A stretch of DNA of 64,000 bases from a virus: positions 13,873-77,872 of the IMG/VR virus record IMGVR_UViG_3300045772_000033; one strand, 5' to 3'. Both the position numbers and the translations under genes were made by a program. The notes beneath the pieces were generated by a model. That model was not told where the DNA came from and did no database searches. It was given only the letters and a program-made list of their open reading frames with translations. Positions 4,760-62,185 of the stretch are shown here, piece after piece; the stretch's first letter is position 1, and every line of letters begins with the position of its first letter.

Positions 4760-4848
4760 ATTTTTCATTGGTGTTGTGTCTCAATTTCCCGCCCCATCTC
4801 TTTTTCAACTATCCTTCCCCTAGCACCGTTTTCGGAGGCACCCGCCTT

Positions 4849-5052
4849 ATGTCCACTGCCCGCGCCAAGTATCAGACTACCGCACCTGCTGAGTTTTCTT
4901 CAGCCCTCCCTGAGAACCCACGCAAGGATTACACCGATCCTGACGCACGCCCCCCTGGCCGCTCCGGCGGCGGCCCCCCGGTTTCCACGCCTCACCGCGT
5001 CTCGACCTCGCGCCGTAAGACCGCGAAGAAAGCGAGCCGTCGCCGTGGATGA
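4849..5052 (+). CDS. Small basic protein
   Basis: GGAGG RBS; ends SRRKTAKKASRRRG. Confidence 0.6.
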   Translation: MSTARAKYQTTAPAEFSSALPENPRKDYTDPDARPPGRSGGGPPVSTPHRVSTSRRKTAKKASRRRG

Positions 5053-5404
5053 TTACGATTCTGCCCCTCCCGAAGTGACCATCGAGCCGGCTGACAACGG
5101 GTTCGTCGTCCGCCACCAGCAACGCGGCAGCAAGAAGGACGAGCCAAGTCGTACCGTCCGCCGCGTAGCATCCTCTGCCGACGAGGCTTTGGACCACGCC
5201 CGAACGGCGATCAGCGGCGGCAGTAAATCGTTCAAGAAAAGATCAGTTAAACGAGATGGGCAATCAGGCGTGATGTCAGACGCCGAGGGGGAGTCAGGCT
5301 CGGCCTCCTCCCCCGCTGCCCATGCGGCGGCTGCCCACGCAGCGCGCGCTCCCCGCCGTGGCTCAGCCCGGCGCCGTCGCCCCAGAATCGGAGGTCGTAG
5401 ATGA
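5045..5404 (+). CDS. Hypothetical protein with Arg-rich tail
   Basis: Overlapping start/stop with neighbours; VTIEPADNGFVV beta segment; ends RRRRPRIGGRR. Confidence 0.65.
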   Translation: MDDYDSAPPEVTIEPADNGFVVRHQQRGSKKDEPSRTVRRVASSADEALDHARTAISGGSKSFKKRSVKRDGQSGVMSDAEGESGSASSPAAHAAAAHAARAPRRGSARRRRPRIGGRR

Positions 5405-5541
5405 AGAAGGAAATTTGCACACCAGAGAAGGACGAGACACCTGAAATGGAAGGTCGCAGTCATCCGGCCAGCTTTCTTCGCAAAGCAACCCGCGTGGCCG
5501 AGAAGAAGTCCGGCAAGCGCGCGGCCAAGAAGCGGGGCTAG
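5401..5541 (+). CDS. Small basic protein (46 aa)
   Basis: GGAGG RBS; ATGA overlap; MKKEICTPEK...KKSGKRAAKKRG. Confidence 0.6.
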   Translation: MKKEICTPEKDETPEMEGRSHPASFLRKATRVAEKKSGKRAAKKRG

Positions 5542-5544
5542 TTT

Positions 5545-5730
5545 ATGCCCTGGACCGCAGCCGAGGCCACCAAACATGACCGTGCGGCGAAGTCGCCGAA
5601 GCGTAAGAGGCAGTGGGCCAAGACGGCCAACGCCATTCTCAAGCGAACAGGCGATGATGCCCGTGCGATCAGGGGAGCGGATAGCGCGGTGAAAAAGTCT
5701 CAGGCCAAACGCGCACGCAAGCGGGCATGA
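5545..5730 (+). CDS. Small basic protein
   Basis: MPWTAAEATKH..KRQWAKTANAIL..ARAIRGA; sits directly before the portal gene. Confidence 0.7.
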   Translation: MPWTAAEATKHDRAAKSPKRKRQWAKTANAILKRTGDDARAIRGADSAVKKSQAKRARKRA

Positions 5731-5764: not shown

Positions 5765-7537
5765 ATGTCAAATTTGGTCTTCATTGGCGCGAACAGGAAA
5801 TCCGCGAAGCAGGAGTCCATCGACCCCAGGAGCCGTCATGTGCAAGATTGGGTAGAGGCTTCAGATTCTGCCCGCAATAAAGCCCTTGGCGAATCGTTTG
5901 CAAAGAATGCCGAAGACCTCTACAACCTCCAGGATGCGATGACCCCCGGCCCAGTGTATAGGCCATCCCTCTCAATCCCGATGTTGCAGCGGATCATGCT
6001 TGAAGAGGCGAACCAGGTCTCGAACCTTTCGCCGAGGATGTATGTCTTTCCTTCAGCCGGCGCGGGCGACCCGTCCTATTCCGGCGCCAAGCAGGCCGAT
6101 TCCTCCCTCAATCCTGCCTCAGCGCGCGACCTCGCCCGTGAAGTCTCCCTCCAGGCTCAGTGGCAAATCTCGAAGATGAATCTGCATCTGCTGATGGCAG
6201 GTTTGACCGCGCGCTATTGTGGCGCGGGCTGGATAGTAGCCGGATTTGACCCGGACCTCAGTCGCGCCCGCGGCGGAATGTGGGCACGCAGCATCGATCC
6301 TCGGTTGGTATTCTTCGATCCCGGAGCCGACTACACCTGGAATCCCAGCTACGCAGGCTGGGGCACATGGATGAATCTCGAAGATGTCCGGCTGAAATGG
6401 CCGGAGACTTCGCGCGCGATTTCCCCAAGGCATACGTCCGGCGGCTTCCAGCCATTCTCCGGCGACTCTGGTTACGGGATATCCCAGCCGCAGGGGCCGA
6501 TGTCTTCGATGCCCAACGTCTCCGGCCAGAACGCCCGCACCCAAAGTTCTGAATGGCGTGTGTTGGTTCGACACTGCTTCTGCCGCGACTATACGCGCGA
6601 AACGGTCGAGAAAGACGATGTTCCCGCGACATCTCTGATTGACCCGGAAGTTCGTTTGAAATATCCCAACGGCCGCTGGCTTGTCGAGTGCGAAGGGGTG
6701 ATCCTGCAAGATGGCGACAACCCCTACCCAAAGCGCCGTGATATTTCCGCGCCTCGGTTCCCCATCTTCCCCAATTACGTTCTCCCACCTCTTTTCGGCC
6801 CGTGGGGCATCCCCGTCACACGCATGACCGAGAATATGCAGCGGCTGGCTCAGCGGTTCTATTCTCAGATTTTCGAGAATGGCCTGCGCATGAACAACGC
6901 GCTCTGGGTGATTGAGGAGAATACGGGGATTGACATCGACGGGTTTGGCGGGCTGCCGGGCGAGGTGGTAACAATCAAGCCGGGTAGTAAGCCGCCGACG
7001 CCGATTACGCCCAACGCCCTTGGCAACGGCGCGCTCCAGGGTGCCGAGAAACTCCTCTCACTCCAGAATGACGTGCTTGGATTCTCAGCTTCGCGCCAGG
7101 GTGACCCCGGCGCGGGCAATGTTTCAACCGACCTTTTCGACAGTGCGGTGCTTCAATCTTCCGGCCTGCTCCAACTCGCCGGCCGGTTCCTCACTGAGAC
7201 GGCGCAGATGGCTGGCGAGTTCTTCTTCGATACGATGTGCAAGTATCAGCAGAAAACGACTCTGCCTTACCGCGGGCCGGAGGGGATTACTCTTGCAGCG
7301 TGGAATGGCCAGATTGATCCCTCAACATACGATGTTGCGCTGGACGAGGCCTCTGTCCGGCCTCTGTCCGAGGCGATAGTCCGCAAGATCACGCCTGATT
7401 TGATGTCAAAGGGAGTTGTTGGGCCGGAGCGTGGATTGCGGACTCTTGGTTATCCTGATCCCGAAGGAATTGCCCAGGAGCAGCAGACGAGTCAAGCCCT
7501 GGCCGCGCTGGCAAAAGTAAAGAGTGGCCGTAAGTAA
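5765..7537 (+). CDS. Portal protein
   Basis: 590 aa between terminase and scaffold/capsid; IDPRLVFFDP and YPNGR..EGVILQDGDNPY segments typical of podovirus-type portals. Confidence 0.8.
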   Translation: MSNLVFIGANRKSAKQESIDPRSRHVQDWVEASDSARNKALGESFAKNAEDLYNLQDAMTPGPVYRPSLSIPMLQRIMLEEANQVSNLSPRMYVFPSAGAGDPSYSGAKQADSSLNPASARDLAREVSLQAQWQISKMNLHLLMAGLTARYCGAGWIVAGFDPDLSRARGGMWARSIDPRLVFFDPGADYTWNPSYAGWGTWMNLEDVRLKWPETSRAISPRHTSGGFQPFSGDSGYGISQPQGPMSSMPNVSGQNARTQSSEWRVLVRHCFCRDYTRETVEKDDVPATSLIDPEVRLKYPNGRWLVECEGVILQDGDNPYPKRRDISAPRFPIFPNYVLPPLFGPWGIPVTRMTENMQRLAQRFYSQIFENGLRMNNALWVIEENTGIDIDGFGGLPGEVVTIKPGSKPPTPITPNALGNGALQGAEKLLSLQNDVLGFSASRQGDPGAGNVSTDLFDSAVLQSSGLLQLAGRFLTETAQMAGEFFFDTMCKYQQKTTLPYRGPEGITLAAWNGQIDPSTYDVALDEASVRPLSEAIVRKITPDLMSKGVVGPERGLRTLGYPDPEGIAQEQQTSQALAALAKVKSGRK

Positions 7538-7542
7538 GAAAG

Positions 7543-7815
7543 GTGGACGAGAGAGTGGCGACGAAAGCAGCATCCCCCCAAATCGATCTGGTTCCAGTTC
7601 CAGATCGCGCTACCTCTGCACGTTCCGTTCCCGGCTACAACTGGCACGCACACTGGCTGACTACAACTGAGTTCGCCCGTATGATGGGCCGCAGCCCGTG
7701 GACCGTGCAAACATGGCTTCGGAACGGCACGTTGGCCGAATTCGGATTTCCTGTATGCCAGTTTCGCAGCGGTGGGCTGCATTCAGGGCGGACTTTTATT
7801 CAGAATATCTTCTGA
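7543..7815 (+). CDS. MerR/excisionase-like HTH protein
   Basis: WLTTTEFARMMGRSPWTVQTWLRNG. Confidence 0.65.
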   Translation: MDERVATKAASPQIDLVPVPDRATSARSVPGYNWHAHWLTTTEFARMMGRSPWTVQTWLRNGTLAEFGFPVCQFRSGGLHSGRTFIQNIF

Positions 7816-7942
7816 TCACATTCTCTGCTTAGACTTGGTGTTGTGGAGACGGGGTTCCATTCCGCCTCTTTCCGTTCTATCCTCTCCTTAATCGCACATT
7901 CCTCGGCCTCACGGCCCTGGCTCGTGCAAAAGGAGAAACACC

Positions 7943-7984
7943 ATGGCCAAGCGTCACGTTCGCAAGGAAAAGAAGCGGAAGTAA
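7943..7984 (+). CDS. 13-aa basic micropeptide MAKRHVRKEKKRK
   Basis: Strong RBS AAGGAG at 7-nt spacing. Confidence 0.55.
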   Translation: MAKRHVRKEKKRK

Positions 7985-8088
7985 TCAGCGCAGGAGCTGG
8001 GCAGCGGATTATTTCCGCTGCCTACGCCTCCTGGCCTGATTCCTCCCTGCCTTAGTCGCGCACCCACTCCCGAAAGGAGACCATCCCG

Positions 8089-8220
8089 ATGGCCGGAACC
8101 CCCTCGAAATCAGATTCTCGTCTCATCAAGGACTTTGGTCAGCCCCGGAAGTTTCTGCGCGACGCGCGTGCCAAGATCAGCAGCCGAGCGAAGAAGTCCA
8201 GCTCGGCCCGCCGGCCCTGA
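8089..8220 (+). CDS. 43-aa basic peptide
   Basis: AAAGGAG RBS; ends ISSRAKKSSSARRP. Confidence 0.6.
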   Translation: MAGTPSKSDSRLIKDFGQPRKFLRDARAKISSRAKKSSSARRP

Positions 8221-8339
8221 CTCATCCCGGAGACGGCGCTGCTGGCCTTCGCGCCCCGTCTTCTTAGCCGCCGAGAGGTCAGCTTCAGGTCAACTTCTGA
8301 CTGACTCCGTCTCGGCACCCCGGAGCGAAGGAGGTACGC

Positions 8340-8399
8340 ATGGCACAGCGCGGAGGAAGACGGTCCGTTCGGCGTCGGCGCACCGCCGCTCGCAAGTAG
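8340..8399 (+). CDS. 19-aa Arg-rich micropeptide MAQRGGRRSVRRRRTAARK
   Basis: AAGGAGGT RBS. Confidence 0.6.
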   Translation: MAQRGGRRSVRRRRTAARK

Positions 8400-8565
8400 G
8401 ACTAAACTGGTTCGCCAGCGTGGTCCGTTCGGCGGCAAGGGTGGGAACTGGTGGGGGACTAGACCTCACCCCTCTCCGCCGAAAGCGTTCGATGCGCAAG
8501 ACAGGAAACGGCAGGGGAGGTGGCGGTAACCTCGCTCTCCTGCCGAATCCCAAGGAGACGTGAGC

Positions 8566-8646
8566 ATGAAATCGACAGGCGCAATTCCCCGGATGACCAA
8601 AAAGGTTGACCGGCGCGTGGGCAAAACAAGGGTAGGCAGGAAGTAG
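8566..8646 (+). CDS. 26-aa basic micropeptide MKSTGAIPRMTKKVDRRVGKTRVGRK
   Basis: AAGGAG RBS. Confidence 0.55.
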   Translation: MKSTGAIPRMTKKVDRRVGKTRVGRK

Positions 8647-8719
8647 CCTAGCCAGTCAATTCGCCCGATAGACCAACCAGTACGACGACCTCAGACCCCG
8701 GCACCAAGGAGAAACGGCA

Positions 8720-8908
8720 ATGGCAAAGATCAAGGAAGCGATGGGCAACACCTTCAACGAGGAGATTTTGAAGTCCCCCCTCACTGTTGGCCGTGTCGGT
8801 AACGAACCCGGCCCTGACGTACACAACAACCCGATTGCCCAGCCGCGCGATCCGCTTGGCCTGATTCCCGAAGGCGGCGACAAGCCGTACTGGTCGGGCA
8901 AGAAGTAG
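8720..8908 (+). CDS. Small hypothetical head-module protein
   Basis: AAGGAG RBS; 62 aa. Confidence 0.7.
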   Translation: MAKIKEAMGNTFNEEILKSPLTVGRVGNEPGPDVHNNPIAQPRDPLGLIPEGGDKPYWSGKK

Positions 8909-8950
8909 GCAGCGAACAAGCAGTCTAAAGGGTAGATGAGAAGGACTCAG

Positions 8951-9481
8951 ATGGCAACCGCACCTCCAGCCTTAGCACAAATGATGGCCAGGCAGTTGAT
9001 CGGTAAACTTGCCGGTGGCGGGCAGGGTGGCCCTGGCGGACCCCCTTCCGGACCTGGGGGTCCGATGCCTCCGCCGCCTGGGATGATGGGCCAAGCCGGG
9101 CCAGGCGCTCCAGGAGCAGGCGGCCCTCCCGGACCTGGTGGCGGTCCTCCTCCGCCCGGACCCAATGCTCCGCCTACGACTCCGGCCGGCCTTCAACTCT
9201 CTCAGCAACTGGCTGAACTCCAGGGTGCCGATCCCGATGCGATGGTGAAATCTCTGACATCGATCAAGACGGTAGCGGTTCAGCTTTACACACGCGCTGC
9301 ATTCACCATGCCTGGTGTTACGCGCAACCTCGCCAACGTCGTCAAGTATCTCGACAACTGCATTCAAGAAGCGGAGAAGGCTGCGGCGACTACCGCTGCT
9401 GCCGGACCCATTGCCAACAACGCAGCCATCCCTAACCCCGCCGGTCAGTCAGGTGGGCTGGGATCACAACCAGGCGCATAG
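8951..9481 (+). CDS. Pro/Gly-rich hypothetical head-module protein
   Basis: AAGGA RBS; low-complexity N-terminus and helical C-terminus. Confidence 0.7.
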   Translation: MATAPPALAQMMARQLIGKLAGGGQGGPGGPPSGPGGPMPPPPGMMGQAGPGAPGAGGPPGPGGGPPPPGPNAPPTTPAGLQLSQQLAELQGADPDAMVKSLTSIKTVAVQLYTRAAFTMPGVTRNLANVVKYLDNCIQEAEKAAATTAAAGPIANNAAIPNPAGQSGGLGSQPGA

Positions 9482-9502
9482 TCGCCGAAGGAGTCCTCCC
9501 CC

Positions 9503-10477
9503 ATGGCTTTAAGCGACATTCTCAAGAACGGCAAGTATCCCGACGACATGGTGCTGAACTTGCCGGACGGCTCGACCGTCAATGTGGGTGAAATTCGCGC
9601 CTTGCCCGCCGCCGAGCGCCAAGCCTTGACTGCACAGATTGAGCAGCGGCAGAGCGCCCTTGGCCAGGCCGAATTAGCTTTTGCGGCCAAGTTCCAGCAA
9701 GCGATTCAGTCAGGCTGGATGACCCAGGACGGCACAGTGGTCGCTCCTCGGCAGCAAACCCAGCAGGTTGCTCAGCCGACCGTGGCCCAGGTTCGCGCCG
9801 CTGCCGCAACCGAGTTTGGCCTCGACGAAAATGACCCCCTGCTTGGGCCAGTAGTGAAGCTGGTCAAGCAGGAATTGGCATCCCGCGATGCCGTTATTGC
9901 CGAGCTTCGCGCCAAGCAGGACGCAATGCCCGGCCAGTTTGATTCCCTCAAGACGACCCTGACCGACGGCCTTGGCCGCGTGACTGGCGTCGTCAACACA
10001 TCAGTTGGGCGCTATCTGAACGACCAGTATCAGTCGCAGTTCGCCGCTGCGACCAAAGACCTGCCCAAGGGCGTCACGGTGGACTACGAGACGGCATACA
10101 AATATGCCTCCGACCACCAGCTCAAGGACAAGGATGGTTTCCTTCAGGTCGCTGACGCAGTGGATCGGCTGACTTGGAACGACCGCAAGAAGGCCGAACT
10201 GGCCGAGGAGCGCGCGGCACTTGTAGCCAAGACCACCCGCGAACTGGAGGACAAGAACAAACTCGCCAGCCTCACTCCCCCCTCATCGCGCAATCCTCTT
10301 CACACCACCCCAGTCAAGGACGGTGAATTCAATCCCTTCAACGAGCGGACGAATGCCAAGGGCGAGAAGGTTCGCGAGGTCAAGTCTTTCGAGGAAGCGA
10401 TGTCCGCGGCAATGGGCGACGAAGACGTGATGAAGTCAGCAATGTCGTCAGCCAGTCTTGGCGGCGGCGTGAACTAG
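9503..10477 (+). CDS. Putative capsid scaffolding protein
   Basis: Helical/coiled-coil, 324 aa, directly before the major capsid gene. Confidence 0.6.
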   Translation: MALSDILKNGKYPDDMVLNLPDGSTVNVGEIRALPAAERQALTAQIEQRQSALGQAELAFAAKFQQAIQSGWMTQDGTVVAPRQQTQQVAQPTVAQVRAAAATEFGLDENDPLLGPVVKLVKQELASRDAVIAELRAKQDAMPGQFDSLKTTLTDGLGRVTGVVNTSVGRYLNDQYQSQFAAATKDLPKGVTVDYETAYKYASDHQLKDKDGFLQVADAVDRLTWNDRKKAELAEERAALVAKTTRELEDKNKLASLTPPSSRNPLHTTPVKDGEFNPFNERTNAKGEKVREVKSFEEAMSAAMGDEDVMKSAMSSASLGGGVN

Positions 10478-10576: not shown

Positions 10577-11563
10577 ATGGCTCAGAGCGTGGTTGGACTG
10601 GGACTTGCATCGCCGCCGGTACAGCTTTCAAACACCGTGAACGCGATCTCCCAGAAATTTATCGTCCCTGTCCTCGGCGACAACGTGTTCAAGCCCAGCC
10701 CAGTCTTTTGGGCCTTGACCCGCGAGGGCAAGCGGTTCGGCGCCGGCGAATTGATCTTCCCGGAAATCTATCAGGAAGAGCTTCCCGGTGGCGCGTACTA
10801 CGGTGACCAGCTCCTCGACACTTCGGTCGTGGACTCGGTGCAGCCGGCGAACCAGCAATGGAAACCCTACCGCCAGCCTGTGGTCATTCCGATCACCGAC
10901 ATCATTCTCAATCGTGGCGGCAGCAACAACCTGGACATCATCCGGGCCAAGTTCCAGACAGCCAGCGGCAGCCTCCTCCAGAAGCTCTCGCGCGCGCTGT
11001 GGCACACATCGCCGCAGAATACGTCCCTTGACGTGGACGATCTGAACTCGTGGGTGGTTTCGACGACCAACACCATCGCCGGAATCAACCGCGCCAGTTC
11101 CGCGAATGCCTGGTGGTTGCCCGCAACTGTTGCCGCTGGTGGCGGCGGCGCCTTGACCTCGGCCACTGCTGAGCCCGCTTATCAGTCTGTCACCTGGGGC
11201 TATGACGAGCCGGATCTGTTCGTGATGAACCGGACCAGTTACGCCGCGTTCAAGAACAACTTCGTCAACAACATTCGTTTCGGTCAAGGGATGCAGGATG
11301 ACGAGGCCTTGCAGGTCGGTTTCCGCAACCACTTCCTGTTCAACAACGCCGTGACCGTGGCCGACTTTTTCGCGACCGCGAACCAGGCGCTTCTGTTGAA
11401 CTCGAAGTACATCTTTCCGGTCTTCCACGAAGCGGATTACTTCAACGTCGATCCGTTCCTGAAGCCCTCGAACCAGCGCGTTCTGGTCTCGTGCATGTAC
11501 CTGACCTGGAACCTGTCGTGCATCAGCCCGCGCATGAACGTGGCAATCACGCCGATCACGTAG
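10577..11563 (+). CDS. Major capsid protein
   Basis: 328 aa, strong RBS, strongly biased codons; DNVFKPSPV, AGINRAS..WW, PDLFVM and F-NNA motifs typical of HK97-fold coats. Confidence 0.85.
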   Translation: MAQSVVGLGLASPPVQLSNTVNAISQKFIVPVLGDNVFKPSPVFWALTREGKRFGAGELIFPEIYQEELPGGAYYGDQLLDTSVVDSVQPANQQWKPYRQPVVIPITDIILNRGGSNNLDIIRAKFQTASGSLLQKLSRALWHTSPQNTSLDVDDLNSWVVSTTNTIAGINRASSANAWWLPATVAAGGGGALTSATAEPAYQSVTWGYDEPDLFVMNRTSYAAFKNNFVNNIRFGQGMQDDEALQVGFRNHFLFNNAVTVADFFATANQALLLNSKYIFPVFHEADYFNVDPFLKPSNQRVLVSCMYLTWNLSCISPRMNVAITPIT

Positions 11564-11643
11564 GACCGATTCAGGAGGAGGCGGGCAGACTGGGCTAGGC
11601 CCAGATTCAGCCTTCCTCCTCCCACACCCCAAGGAGATTCCCA

Positions 11644-16164: not shown

Positions 16165-16631
16165 GCCCTGCCGTCCGAGTTCGCAACCTTCGCGCAGGCG
16201 AGCAGGCCAGCCTCCCCGCTGCTTTACGCGACACCGGAATGTTTTTCTTGGCCGAGGAGTGGGTCTGGGTCGTAGAACGCGCAGCGTTGCCTTCCCCGCT
16301 CGGTCCGTTCGGTCCTCCGCCTCCCGCTCCTTTCGCCATCGTCGTCTGCTCTTTCGCCCACGGGTGGTTGGTGTTGTGGAGACTTTTGTCTATCTCGCCA
16401 CTTTCACCCGGAATACCGCTAAACTGGTTCAAGGAAGCCTTGCCGCAGGTCTTCGCCGAGGCGCGTCTGCGAGGGTGTGTCGGATTTCTTACTCTGCTCG
16501 CTGACAACCGTCCCGCAGAGGTGAAGATGGCCCGGATTATTGCCTCTCTGCCGGGTGCGACTCTGCTGCCGTTCCAGGGGTCACTGGGGGTCGGATTGCT
16601 GAGCGAGGCCGGGAAAGGGGAATCACGATGA
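16161..16631 (+). CDS. Hypothetical protein, possibly GNAT-like
   Basis: Coupled overlaps; VRVRNL start and EARLRGCVGF segment. Confidence 0.5.
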   Translation: MSPAVRVRNLRAGEQASLPAALRDTGMFFLAEEWVWVVERAALPSPLGPFGPPPPAPFAIVVCSFAHGWLVLWRLLSISPLSPGIPLNWFKEALPQVFAEARLRGCVGFLTLLADNRPAEVKMARIIASLPGATLLPFQGSLGVGLLSEAGKGESR

Positions 16632-17095
16632 TCGTTGCTGAGGCTCAGGTCACCATTCTTCCCGTATCCGTCGATACAATCTTCGACGCGCCGAATGCCA
16701 CTGCTCTGTTTCGGGCCAACGCTGAAGAATGTCTTGTCCCGGAGGCTGATCCGCAACGCGCATTCTATTTGGCAATGGAGCAAGCCGGAGTGCTCAAATG
16801 CTTTGCATCTTACGCGGGCGTCCGACTCGTTGGCTTCAGCGCGATTCTTTGCACAGATATGCTCGATCACCCTGGCAAGAGGCTTGCCACCGCCAAGAGT
16901 ATATTCGTCGATCCCGACTATCGCGGCACAGGAGCAGGCGATCTTCTGCTTGATGCCGCTGAGCAGTACGCAACGGAAGCCGGTTGCATGGCTTTCACCG
17001 CCTCAGCACGAGTTGACAGCGCGTTTGACAAAGTTCTTTCTCGACGCGCTGGATACACGCTAACCCATTCGCAGCATACGAGGTGGCTGGCATGA
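16628..17095 (+). CDS. GNAT family acetyltransferase
   Basis: SIFVDPDYRGTGAGDLLLDAAEQYA (acetyl-CoA motif A). Confidence 0.85.
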   Translation: MIVAEAQVTILPVSVDTIFDAPNATALFRANAEECLVPEADPQRAFYLAMEQAGVLKCFASYAGVRLVGFSAILCTDMLDHPGKRLATAKSIFVDPDYRGTGAGDLLLDAAEQYATEAGCMAFTASARVDSAFDKVLSRRAGYTLTHSQHTRWLA

Positions 17096-45144: not shown

Positions 45145-45221
45145 TGGTGGACGCGGTAGGACTTGAACCTACAACCTGTCGGTTAAGAGCCGAATGCTGC
45201 TACCAATTGAGCTACGCGTCC
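45145..45221 (-). tRNA. tRNA-Lys (CTT)
   Basis: GGACGCG acceptor stem, anticodon loop CTCTTAA, GGTTCAAGTCC T-arm, encoded CCA. Confidence 0.9.
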
Positions 45222-61684: not shown

Positions 61685-62185
61685 ATGTCGCATGAACAGC
61701 ACGAAGCCAACGAAGTTCTTCATCAGATCCTCCATGAGTTGCGCGATATTCGGCGCGAACTGAAACACCGGCCTTCCCCTTTGCCCCAGCCCACCAGCCG
61801 CTTCAGTGCGGTGCAATTTACAGGAGATTCGATCATCATGCAGACCAACAACCTTACTCTCGCGGTTGGGCAGACCTCGACCGCCACTCCGGTAACTTTC
61901 CTCGCCGACGGCACGACCCTTGCCGGCGCAACCCTCAGCGGCGTCTCCTATGCCTTCTCTGATCCGAGCGCGACCGTGGCCATCAATCCGGACGGCATTA
62001 CCGCTCTGGTAACCGCCCAAGCTGCGAGCAACGGCCCGATCTCCGGCGCGGTCAGTTTTACAGCGACCGACACCGATTCTGCGGTTTCGCAGTGGACTCA
62101 GCCCTTCACCATTACCGTAACCGGGATCGTGCCTCCCGGCCAACTCTCCCAGTCGAGCGCGCTGCAATTCAGCGATCCCGTCTAG
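61685..62185 (+). CDS. Ig-like domain protein
   Basis: LAVGQT..ATP..FSDPSATV..ITVT (Big-2-like pattern). Confidence 0.6.
   Translation: MSHEQHEANEVLHQILHELRDIRRELKHRPSPLPQPTSRFSAVQFTGDSIIMQTNNLTLAVGQTSTATPVTFLADGTTLAGATLSGVSYAFSDPSATVAINPDGITALVTAQAASNGPISGAVSFTATDTDSAVSQWTQPFTITVTGIVPPGQLSQSSALQFSDPV

Follow-up and report, generated by a model that had tools for sequence, protein, structure and literature searches.

Gene content of the portal-to-scaffold interval

The stretch of DNA analysed here (hereafter the window, 64,000 nucleotides) comprises bases 13873-77872 of a 77,872-bp IMG/VR virus record, rated complete by CheckV, from an uncultured phage of peat soil. The major head (capsid) protein is encoded at positions 10577-11563 of the window (phrog_9953, 1.6e-25), on the same strand as an array of five short ORFs that lies between a portal gene (5765-7537) and a gene for a scaffold-like protein (9503-10477). 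This placement between portal and scaffold had been proposed in an earlier note made from the DNA letters. On the portal side it stood through the protein family: the window's own protein matched SU10_portal weakly (E 0.0064), but the call holds because four of nine family members matched P22_portal (best 1.8e-9). The scaffold-like protein was called from its position, size and acidity only. No head protease was found with PHROGs and Pfam among the ORFs scanned between the terminase and capsid genes. A contig of a Terracidiphilus (Acidobacteriota) MAG bears a capsid gene 96% identical to that of the window, and on this likeness Terracidiphilus may be regarded as a lead to the host.

The interval 7835-8908 is a conserved expression cassette within the head-gene block of this 77.9-kb phage. 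It comprises, in this order, a promoter-like element, a 5' stem-loop, p13, a hairpin, p43, an invariant hairpin, p19, a structured RNA of 150 nt, p26 and p62; a Gly/Pro-rich protein, the scaffold-like protein and the major capsid protein are encoded downstream. Reading of the sequence from 7600 to 9300, together with a listing of ORFs of at least 20 aa, revealed five plus-strand ORFs, each 5-9 nt behind AAGGAG or AAGGAGG. These are the ORFs of 13, 43, 19, 26 and 62 aa, each behind an AAGGAG ribosome-binding site (RBS), that the earlier note had described; its lengths, C-terminal residues and RBSs were correct, and two of its coordinates had to be moved by 1 nt.

The first of them, p13 (MAKRHVRKEKKRK; ORF 7943-7984, with RBS 7930-7984), has 13 aa, a net charge of +7, 62% Lys plus Arg (K+R) and a pI of 11.8, and is followed by p43 (ORF 8089-8220, with RBS 8074-8220), a peptide of 43 aa ending in RRP, with a net charge of +10, 30% K+R and a pI of 11.9. 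The 19-aa p19 (MAQRGGRRSVRRRRTAARK; ORF 8340-8399, 8328-8399 with its AAGGAGG site) carries a net charge of +9 with 47% K+R and a pI of 12.0, and the 26-aa p26 (ORF 8566-8646, with RBS 8552-8646), which ends in GRK, carries +9 with 38% K+R and the same pI. The last, p62 (ORF 8720-8908, with RBS 8706-8908), has 62 aa and ends in GKK; its net charge is 0, its pI 6.5 and its K+R content 13%. The label protamine-like, which had been given to the whole set, was therefore kept for p13, p43, p19 and p26 and dropped for p62. These four polycations (13-43 aa, net +7 to +10, 30-62% Lys plus Arg, hydrophobic segment absent) match the protamine-like class of virus core proteins, which are small, very rich in K+R and devoid of a hydrophobic core, and like that class they are encoded and expressed with capsid genes.

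Sites of the form AAGGAG-N4-9-ATG were found 14 times in the whole 64 kb, against 3.2 expected from shuffles, and five of the 14 fell within the roughly 800 bp from 7930 to 8722; two others lie at 9488, ahead of the scaffold-like gene, and at 11631, ahead of the gene that follows the capsid gene. A window-wide scan for SD-led basic ORFs (10-70 aa, SD score of at least 5, net charge of at least +6 and of at least 0.2 per residue) recovered the four basic ORFs of the array and three others, at 2003-2101, at 7293-7379 within the portal gene and at 61854-61931, all with a GGAGG or AGGAG site.

The promoter-like element (7835..7897, plus strand) consists of TTGGTGTTGTG, then TTCCAT-N17-TATCCT, then TTAATCGCAC; the blocks TTRGTGTTRT, a TTCCAT-N17-TATCCT-type motif and TTAATCGCAC were conserved in an alignment of 38 relatives. 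The pattern GGTGTT-N25-50-CTAYCM has just two occurrences in the window (4770 and 7837), where 0.24 would be expected, and an RNA contig of run X1 (see below) begins at 7904, just past the element. We infer a promoter function from this arrangement. The plus-strand stem-loop of the 5' leader (7898..7929), which may act as a 5' stabiliser, reads GGCC..GGCC in the window and varies in sequence, differing self-complementary sequences being carried at its position by the relatives. The second copy of the promoter-like element (4770-4814, plus strand) precedes four small plus-strand ORFs with basic tails, b67 (4849-5052, net +10), b119 (5045-5404, net +9), b46 (5401-5541, net +7) and b61 (5545-5730, net +14), which sit directly before the portal gene; b119, b46 and b61 were conserved in 53-62 loci. 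The earlier note was silent on these four proteins and on the conserved RNA structures between the ORFs of the array.

Profile searches left the products without a named family. Neither p43, p26 and p62 nor the upstream basic ORFs matched Pfam at E up to 10 (p13 and p19 are under the scanner's 20-aa limit), the PHROGs scan of p62, b119 and b61 and the PDB profile searches of p43 and p62 gave no match, and a search of the ESM Atlas with p43 gave no usable one. The expectation that gene callers would miss the module proved right for p26, whose exact sequence was missing from the public protein collection, but not for p43 and p62, which are there in exact form as hypothetical proteins, p43 in a cluster without a name and p62 among relatives that are likewise called hypothetical protein; p13 and p19 were below the length limit of this look-up. 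Among 1.84 billion proteins, p62 matched 22 representative clusters, 21 of them of 50-80 aa and the remaining one a weak 221-aa match (E 7.7e-4) in four stretches; no fusion hinting at a role for p62 was present among the 22.

Conservation of the micro-ORFs and of the RNA structures between them

Portal and capsid queries fetched 129 IMG/VR loci, which yielded 69 distinct portal-to-scaffold intervals with portal C-terminal identities from 96% down to 32%, and thus 70 intervals with that of the window. When these were scanned for short ORFs behind an RBS, a check that the earlier note had put forward, SD-led and strongly basic micro-ORFs were found in all 70, one to five per interval, at the same place and on the same strand, in every case between the genes for portal and capsid protein, with the scaffold-like gene downstream. 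The plus strand held 3.46 of them per interval on average, the reverse strand of these intervals 0.10. In-frame dN/dS (Nei-Gojobori) was 0.47 for p13, 0.41 for p43, 0.37 for p19, 0.31 for p26 and 0.18 for p62, whereas the two shifted frames of the five ORFs gave 0.69-1.86 (0.69-1.50 for the four basic ORFs alone; 0.69 and 0.92 for p13, 0.80 and 1.50 for p19). The ORFs are therefore to be regarded as translated genes under selection at the peptide level. Chance ORFs were rejected on the grounds of the conservation throughout the 70 intervals, the strand asymmetry and the low dN/dS in the annotated frame only; judged from the sequence comparison, the micro-ORFs are genuine conserved genes under purifying selection, and neither chance frames nor purely RNA-level features.

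The families differed in how much of the peptide was preserved. The p13 slot was occupied by a variable basic ORF of 12-26 aa in 46 of the 70 intervals, every time with an ATG and AAGGAG or AGGAGG. The p43 family, present in 47 intervals, shares a conserved core (VVKDFGQPRKFLRDMRAK), and K14, D15, F22 and R27 were invariant among 32 distinct sequences (alignment A2); AlphaFold2, run with the family alignment, predicted a single helix over residues 19-40 (mean pLDDT 85 for residues 11-20 and 89 for residues 21-30). The p19 family, RGGRRSxRRRRTAARK, was found in 53 intervals, in 48 of them behind AAGGAGG, with identities of 89-100% in the near clade. The conserved motif of p26, IPRMTKKVDRRVGK...RK, was found in 40 intervals, in peptides of 22-42 aa. 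The proline-rich p62, with the motif ILKSPLTVGRxxNEPGPDVxNNPxAxPxDPLxLIP, occurred in 67 intervals and showed 11 invariant columns (alignment A3); it was modelled by AlphaFold2 as coil (pLDDT 58) and is predicted to be unfolded.

Taken together, the 163 distinct basic peptides consisted of Arg or Lys in 38% of residues and of hydrophobic residues (I, L, M, F, V, W, C) in 17%. Met-Ala was the start of 96 of them and Arg-Lys the end of 90, an ending for which we have no explanation. A Lys codon bias tied to the phage tRNA-Lys(CTT) was considered and was not striking, AAG making up 76% of Lys codons in the micro-ORFs versus 67% in large genes.

An extra peptide of 30-48 aa (+10 to +14) was encoded downstream of p62 in distant clades, and clades with genomes of 54-58 kb had only one to three basic peptides; a scaling of peptide number with genome size was weak and confounded by phylogeny. 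The sole cultured phage with a similar capsid protein was Myxococcus phage Mx9 (26% identity). Its gene order is similar to that of the window, including an acetyltransferase in the virion block; a comparable micro-ORF array was not found in its portal-to-scaffold interval, and pairwise comparison of its portal and scaffold proteins with their counterparts in the window showed no similarity.

The plus-strand spacers between the ORFs hold several RNA structures. The hairpin between p13 and p43 (7985..8073; -39 kcal/mol, z -4.8 in the window) was not consistently strong in the relatives (median z -0.8). Directly after the p43 stop codon lies a hairpin of 48 nt (8221..8268), followed by TTCTTA, which was near-invariant in an alignment of 22 relatives (A4) while the adjoining p43 C-terminus was variable, and which is a candidate attenuator or 3'-end stabiliser. 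A variable hairpin and the start of a conserved block, CCGGAGCGAAGGAGGTACGC, occupy 8269..8327, and the block continues into the p19 RBS.

The structured element of about 150 nt after p19 (R1; 8401..8555) had minimum free energies whose z (median -4.3) stayed below -2 in each of the 31 distinct relatives. In its alignment (A5), 97.9% of cells pair, against 37-56% with the partners slid; compensatory changes were seen at nine pairs, a number reached in none of 500 shuffles, and the loop and junction sequences were near-invariant. Since 1-nt indels are present, the element is not coding. A genome that has it holds a single copy, on the plus strand, and the element is confined to the clade in which p26 is also present. 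Rfam gave no match with E below 1 over R1, and neither this element nor the post-p43 hairpin is in Rfam; the only two matches, at chance level (E 0.09-0.7), fell on the p13-p43 spacer, one to a microRNA and the other to a viroid motif. The two conserved elements are new candidate cis-regulatory or processing motifs.

RNA contigs over the array

Words of the stretch were shared by 21 RNA runs from peat, permafrost and wetland, eight of them at a share of at least 0.20, and four runs from four studies were compared with the array as assembled contigs, whose word depth is a rough and poor measure of expression. By this measure, in run X1, the contig covering p13, p43 and their hairpins (7904-8325) had a depth of 1231, against 62 for the contig 8355-10313, which spans p19 through the scaffold-like gene, 105 for the capsid gene and 4-17 for the portal gene. 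The corresponding rough figures, with the p13-p43 contig given first, were 243 versus about 30 in run X5, 251 versus about 10 in run X6 and 22 versus 6-9 in run X2. In three runs the p13-p43 contig was 8-25 times deeper than the capsid-gene contig, as far as contig depth can tell. The uneven profile argues against carried-over DNA. The array is apparently highly expressed, most deeply over p13-p43, contig depth again being a rough figure; its AAGGAG(G) sites point the same way. In some runs, parts of the portal gene had no cover by RNA contigs.

The end of one contig of run X1 at 8325 and the start of the next at 8355 both ran into adapter sequence, a hint of distinct RNA ends shortly before the p19 RBS. 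An RNA joint that skipped 8399-8471 matches the short form of R1 in the relatives L036 and L044 and represents strain variation.

Possible roles of the encoded peptides

The charge of the peptides, the position of their genes and their expression suggest that they probably bind nucleic acid. The role that best fits these observations, and which we favour tentatively, is packaging in the head as counter-ions for the DNA. The peptides would be produced in large amounts late in infection and would act in stoichiometric quantity, as polycations that bind nucleic acid; inside the capsid, where they would come to lie with the 77.9-kb genome, they would make packaging electrostatically less costly and keep the condensed DNA stable. 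p43 may dock on a protein surface through its conserved, putatively amphipathic helix while its basic tails bind DNA, and the conserved hairpins may determine the relative amount of each peptide, in that transcripts stop or are attenuated at them or are shielded at the ends. Together the four peptides of one set carry +35 charges in 11.7 kDa, and by arithmetic about 400 sets, one per capsid-protein subunit, would offset about 9% of the 155,744 phosphate charges of the genome; several thousand copies would therefore be needed for a large effect, a number with which the RNA depth is at least compatible. Points that we counted against the counter-ion model include the share of about 9%, the absence of a known loading route into the procapsid, the roughness of contig depth as a gauge of expression, the clades of 54-58 kb with few peptides, Mx9 without an array and the presence of RNA structures beside Arg-rich peptides.

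The last of these points belongs to a different reading, unlikely in our estimate yet the one to be taken most seriously among the rivals, in which the peptides rich in Arg, and p19 in particular, bind to structured RNA in the manner of arginine-rich-motif peptides, their targets being the elements of the array (with effects on late mRNA processing, stability or translation control) or host RNA and ribosomes. Two strongly conserved RNA structures do lie directly after p43 and p19 and are more conserved in nucleotides than the adjoining coding sequence, R1 and p26 always co-occur, and the RGGRRSxRRRR of p19 resembles in composition the arginine-rich motifs of lambda N, Tat and Rev. Peptides of the p19 family also occur in clades without R1 (for example L065, L093, L094, L110 and L114), however, which weakens the case for R1 as a general partner of p19; a peptide of 13-19 aa cannot hold the extra protein-contact regions needed by lambda N, and the very high expression of four or five different polycations speaks for a bulk role more than for regulation. 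It is rather less probable that the peptides are assembly cofactors absent from the virion, whose task would be to offset for a time the charge of the acidic scaffold-like protein, of the portal or of the capsid interior, or to condense replicated DNA in advance for the terminase. Such a function would agree with the location of the array in the head module, with its apparent co-expression with the scaffold-like, capsid and portal genes and with the acidity of their products (net charges -7, -4 and -4, respectively), but these net charges are small, so that a need for many polycations is not obvious.

That small, cationic and highly expressed peptides might instead be aimed at the host, as lysis peptides that disrupt the outer membrane (like the disruptin phiKT gp28), as compactors of the nucleoid or as blockers of host functions, is improbable. 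Holt et al. reportedly described cationic lysis peptides in phages in 2021; the array peptides, however, have only 17% hydrophobic residues, p13 and p19 by inspection seem unable to form an amphipathic hydrophobic face, and the genes lie in the head block, fixed beside the portal and capsid genes throughout the 70 intervals, and not in a lysis cassette. The combination that marks disruptin-type peptides, an amphipathic helix with a hydrophobic face and a gene in the lysis cassette, was thus not found. We consider it more improbable still that only the act of translation matters and the peptides are functionless, the ORFs serving as Arg/Lys-sensing leader attenuators or as ribosome-loading pads that shield structured RNA from Rho and nucleases. 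Short ORFs rich in one or two amino acids with hairpins immediately after them, and an abundant RNA contig that ends past the post-p43 hairpins, are what such a mechanism would produce; but selection reaches beyond K/R content, with dN/dS of 0.3-0.5 and conserved non-basic residues (including those in KDFGQP..FLRDM and IPRMT..VDRR), while a leader peptide would be unconstrained save for its regulatory codons, and the basic ORFs gave 0.31-0.47. Moreover, four or five serial units, each with a consensus RBS, are unlike known attenuators, and mutually exclusive alternative folds were not found.

The counter-ion reading has precedents outside the tailed phages and, with polyamines, within them. 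Packaged genomes are neutralised by small basic core peptides, such as protein J of the Microviridae, VII and mu of adenovirus and P6.9 of baculovirus, and by polyamines in T4 and lambda. Protein J (phiX174, G4, alpha3) is, like the array peptides, extremely basic, 20-40 aa long and encoded among morphogenesis genes; it goes into the capsid together with the genome, whose charge it neutralises, and a short non-basic part of it contacts the coat protein, as the helix of p43 could do. It belongs, however, to ssDNA phages with a T=1 capsid, 60 copies and a single gene, whereas the array consists of four or five peptides of a tailed dsDNA phage, and p43 and p26 left the Microvir_J profile unmatched in the Pfam scan at E up to 10. 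Adenovirus mu (pX) and VII and baculovirus P6.9 are protamine-like, Arg-rich and small, as are the array peptides, and condense a dsDNA genome in the capsid; they belong to viruses of eukaryotes, which package genome and core proteins in another way, and homology to the array is absent. Adenovirus mu is also cut from a precursor by a protease, whereas each array peptide has its own RBS and a head protease was not found among the genes scanned.

Among tailed phages, T4 carries IPI-III and the internal peptides II and VII, small molecules that reside in the head with the DNA and are injected with it. The internal proteins are of 10-20 kDa, with a capsid-targeting sequence that is cleaved off by the prohead protease, and the internal peptides are acidic; the array shows none of these features, its peptides being too short for an N-terminal leader plus a mature part. 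With N-boxB of lambda and P22 and with HIV Tat-TAR, p19 shares an Arg-rich stretch of about 15-20 residues beside conserved RNA stem-loops on the same transcript, but lambda N has 107 aa with further interaction regions, whereas in p19 the stretch is the whole product, and homologues exist without R1. Polyamines, which act in packaging in T4, lambda and T7, come closest to the proposed role, as multivalent cations that counter DNA-DNA repulsion while the genome is being packaged and afterwards; they are host metabolites, whereas the polycations of the array would be encoded by the phage.

In its widest form, which we put forward as a possibility and hold with less confidence than the packaging role itself, the proposal is that a clade of tailed phages may encode its own 'polyamines': peptides of 13-43 aa, in excess over the capsid protein, loaded into the head as counter-ions, with their dosage set by two conserved RNA structures not described before and with the upstream basic-tailed proteins as part of the system. 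No description of such a module was found in the literature that was searched for protamine-like or small basic packaged peptides in tailed phages. Since virus-encoded basic core peptides are already known, what would be new here is an array of several micro-ORFs, putatively with such a function, in a tailed phage.

Three of the five genes, p13, p19 and p26 (13, 19 and 26 aa), are under the length limits of common gene callers, and they are nevertheless apparently among the most abundantly transcribed parts of the genome, a case in point for functional 'dark' micro-genes of viral metagenomes. Since peptides of this length can be synthesised, the central claim is directly testable without culturing the phage. 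The charge of packed DNA in tailed phages is thought to be balanced by polyamines from the host and by metal ions. If the proposal is true, the system would be the first in the Caudoviricetes in which DNA-condensing peptides are gene-encoded, perhaps an adaptation to the ion-poor, acidic water of peat, and, for this clade at least, such phage-encoded peptides would alter models of the energetics of packaging and of the pressure in the capsid.

Structured elements within the array

Two RNA elements were located on the plus strand among the micro-ORFs, here named by their length in amino acids. Directly 3' of the stop codon of p43 lies a 48-nt hairpin (8221-8268), nearly invariant in sequence across 22 relatives and followed by TTCTTA on its 3' side. 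The abundant metatranscriptome contig that covers p13 and p43 ends at 8325, about 60 nt 3' of the hairpin, for which attenuation or 3'-end stabilisation is a candidate role. The spacer between p19 and p26 holds a conserved structured RNA of about 150 nt (8401-8555), with covariation in its stems and near-invariant loops (TGGTGGGGGACT and CGAAAGCGTTCGATGCGCAAGACAGGA). This RNA was without match in Rfam, occurs as one copy per genome and is restricted to the clade bearing p26.

A repeated motif and basic-tailed proteins upstream of the portal gene

The motif TTGGTGTTGTG was found three times on the plus strand of the window (4768, 7835 and 16368) against 0.39 copies expected, with TATCCT about 45 nt downstream of two of the three. 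It could serve as the operator for the HTH_17 protein, whose gene (7543-7815) is flanked immediately by the portal gene on one side and the array on the other. Just 5' of the portal gene, on the plus strand (4770-5730), the promoter-like element found upstream of p13 recurs and precedes four small basic-tailed proteins of 67, 119, 46 and 61 aa, with charges of +7 to +14 and the strongly basic part in their C-terminal tails. None of the four matched Pfam, and the 119-, 46- and 61-aa proteins are kept in relatives; the four and the micropeptide array may form a single functional group.

Other genes of the window

The gap between p62 and the scaffold-like gene encodes, on the plus strand, a 181-aa protein (8936-9481) with no family match, whose long central stretch is of low complexity and rich in Gly/Pro, whose C-terminal portion looks helical, and which relatives keep at the same position. 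At the start of the window, matches to intein-splicing, Hint and LAGLIDADG domains identify the plus-strand ORF at 41-1522, as judged from sequence, as a gene carrying an intein. A GNAT-type acetyltransferase (16628-17095, plus strand) lies within the virion gene block, as does an acetyltransferase in Myxococcus phage Mx9; the Lys-rich micropeptides or polyamines are possible substrates. The sole tRNA gene of the window, a minus-strand tRNA-Lys(CTT) (45145-45221), reads AAG, the main Lys codon in the Lys-rich micro-ORFs, where the bias is only slightly stronger than in large genes (76% vs 67% of Lys codons).

Variation of the micropeptides among relatives

Across the 70 portal-to-scaffold intervals (the window and 69 relatives), 163 distinct basic micropeptides were compared, 96 of which start with Met-Ala and 90 of which terminate in Arg-Lys-stop. 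These shared ends span families and distant clades (e.g. relatives' loci L101, L108 and L121). The number of basic micro-ORFs varies up or down in some relatives (L047, L107, L115 and L121): L047 has an additional 19-aa micro-ORF (MAKSTKVSRRVARKSAHRY) between the p13 and p43 slots, and L121 a run of four consecutive basic micro-ORFs. The micropeptide array is one in which units are gained and lost over time.
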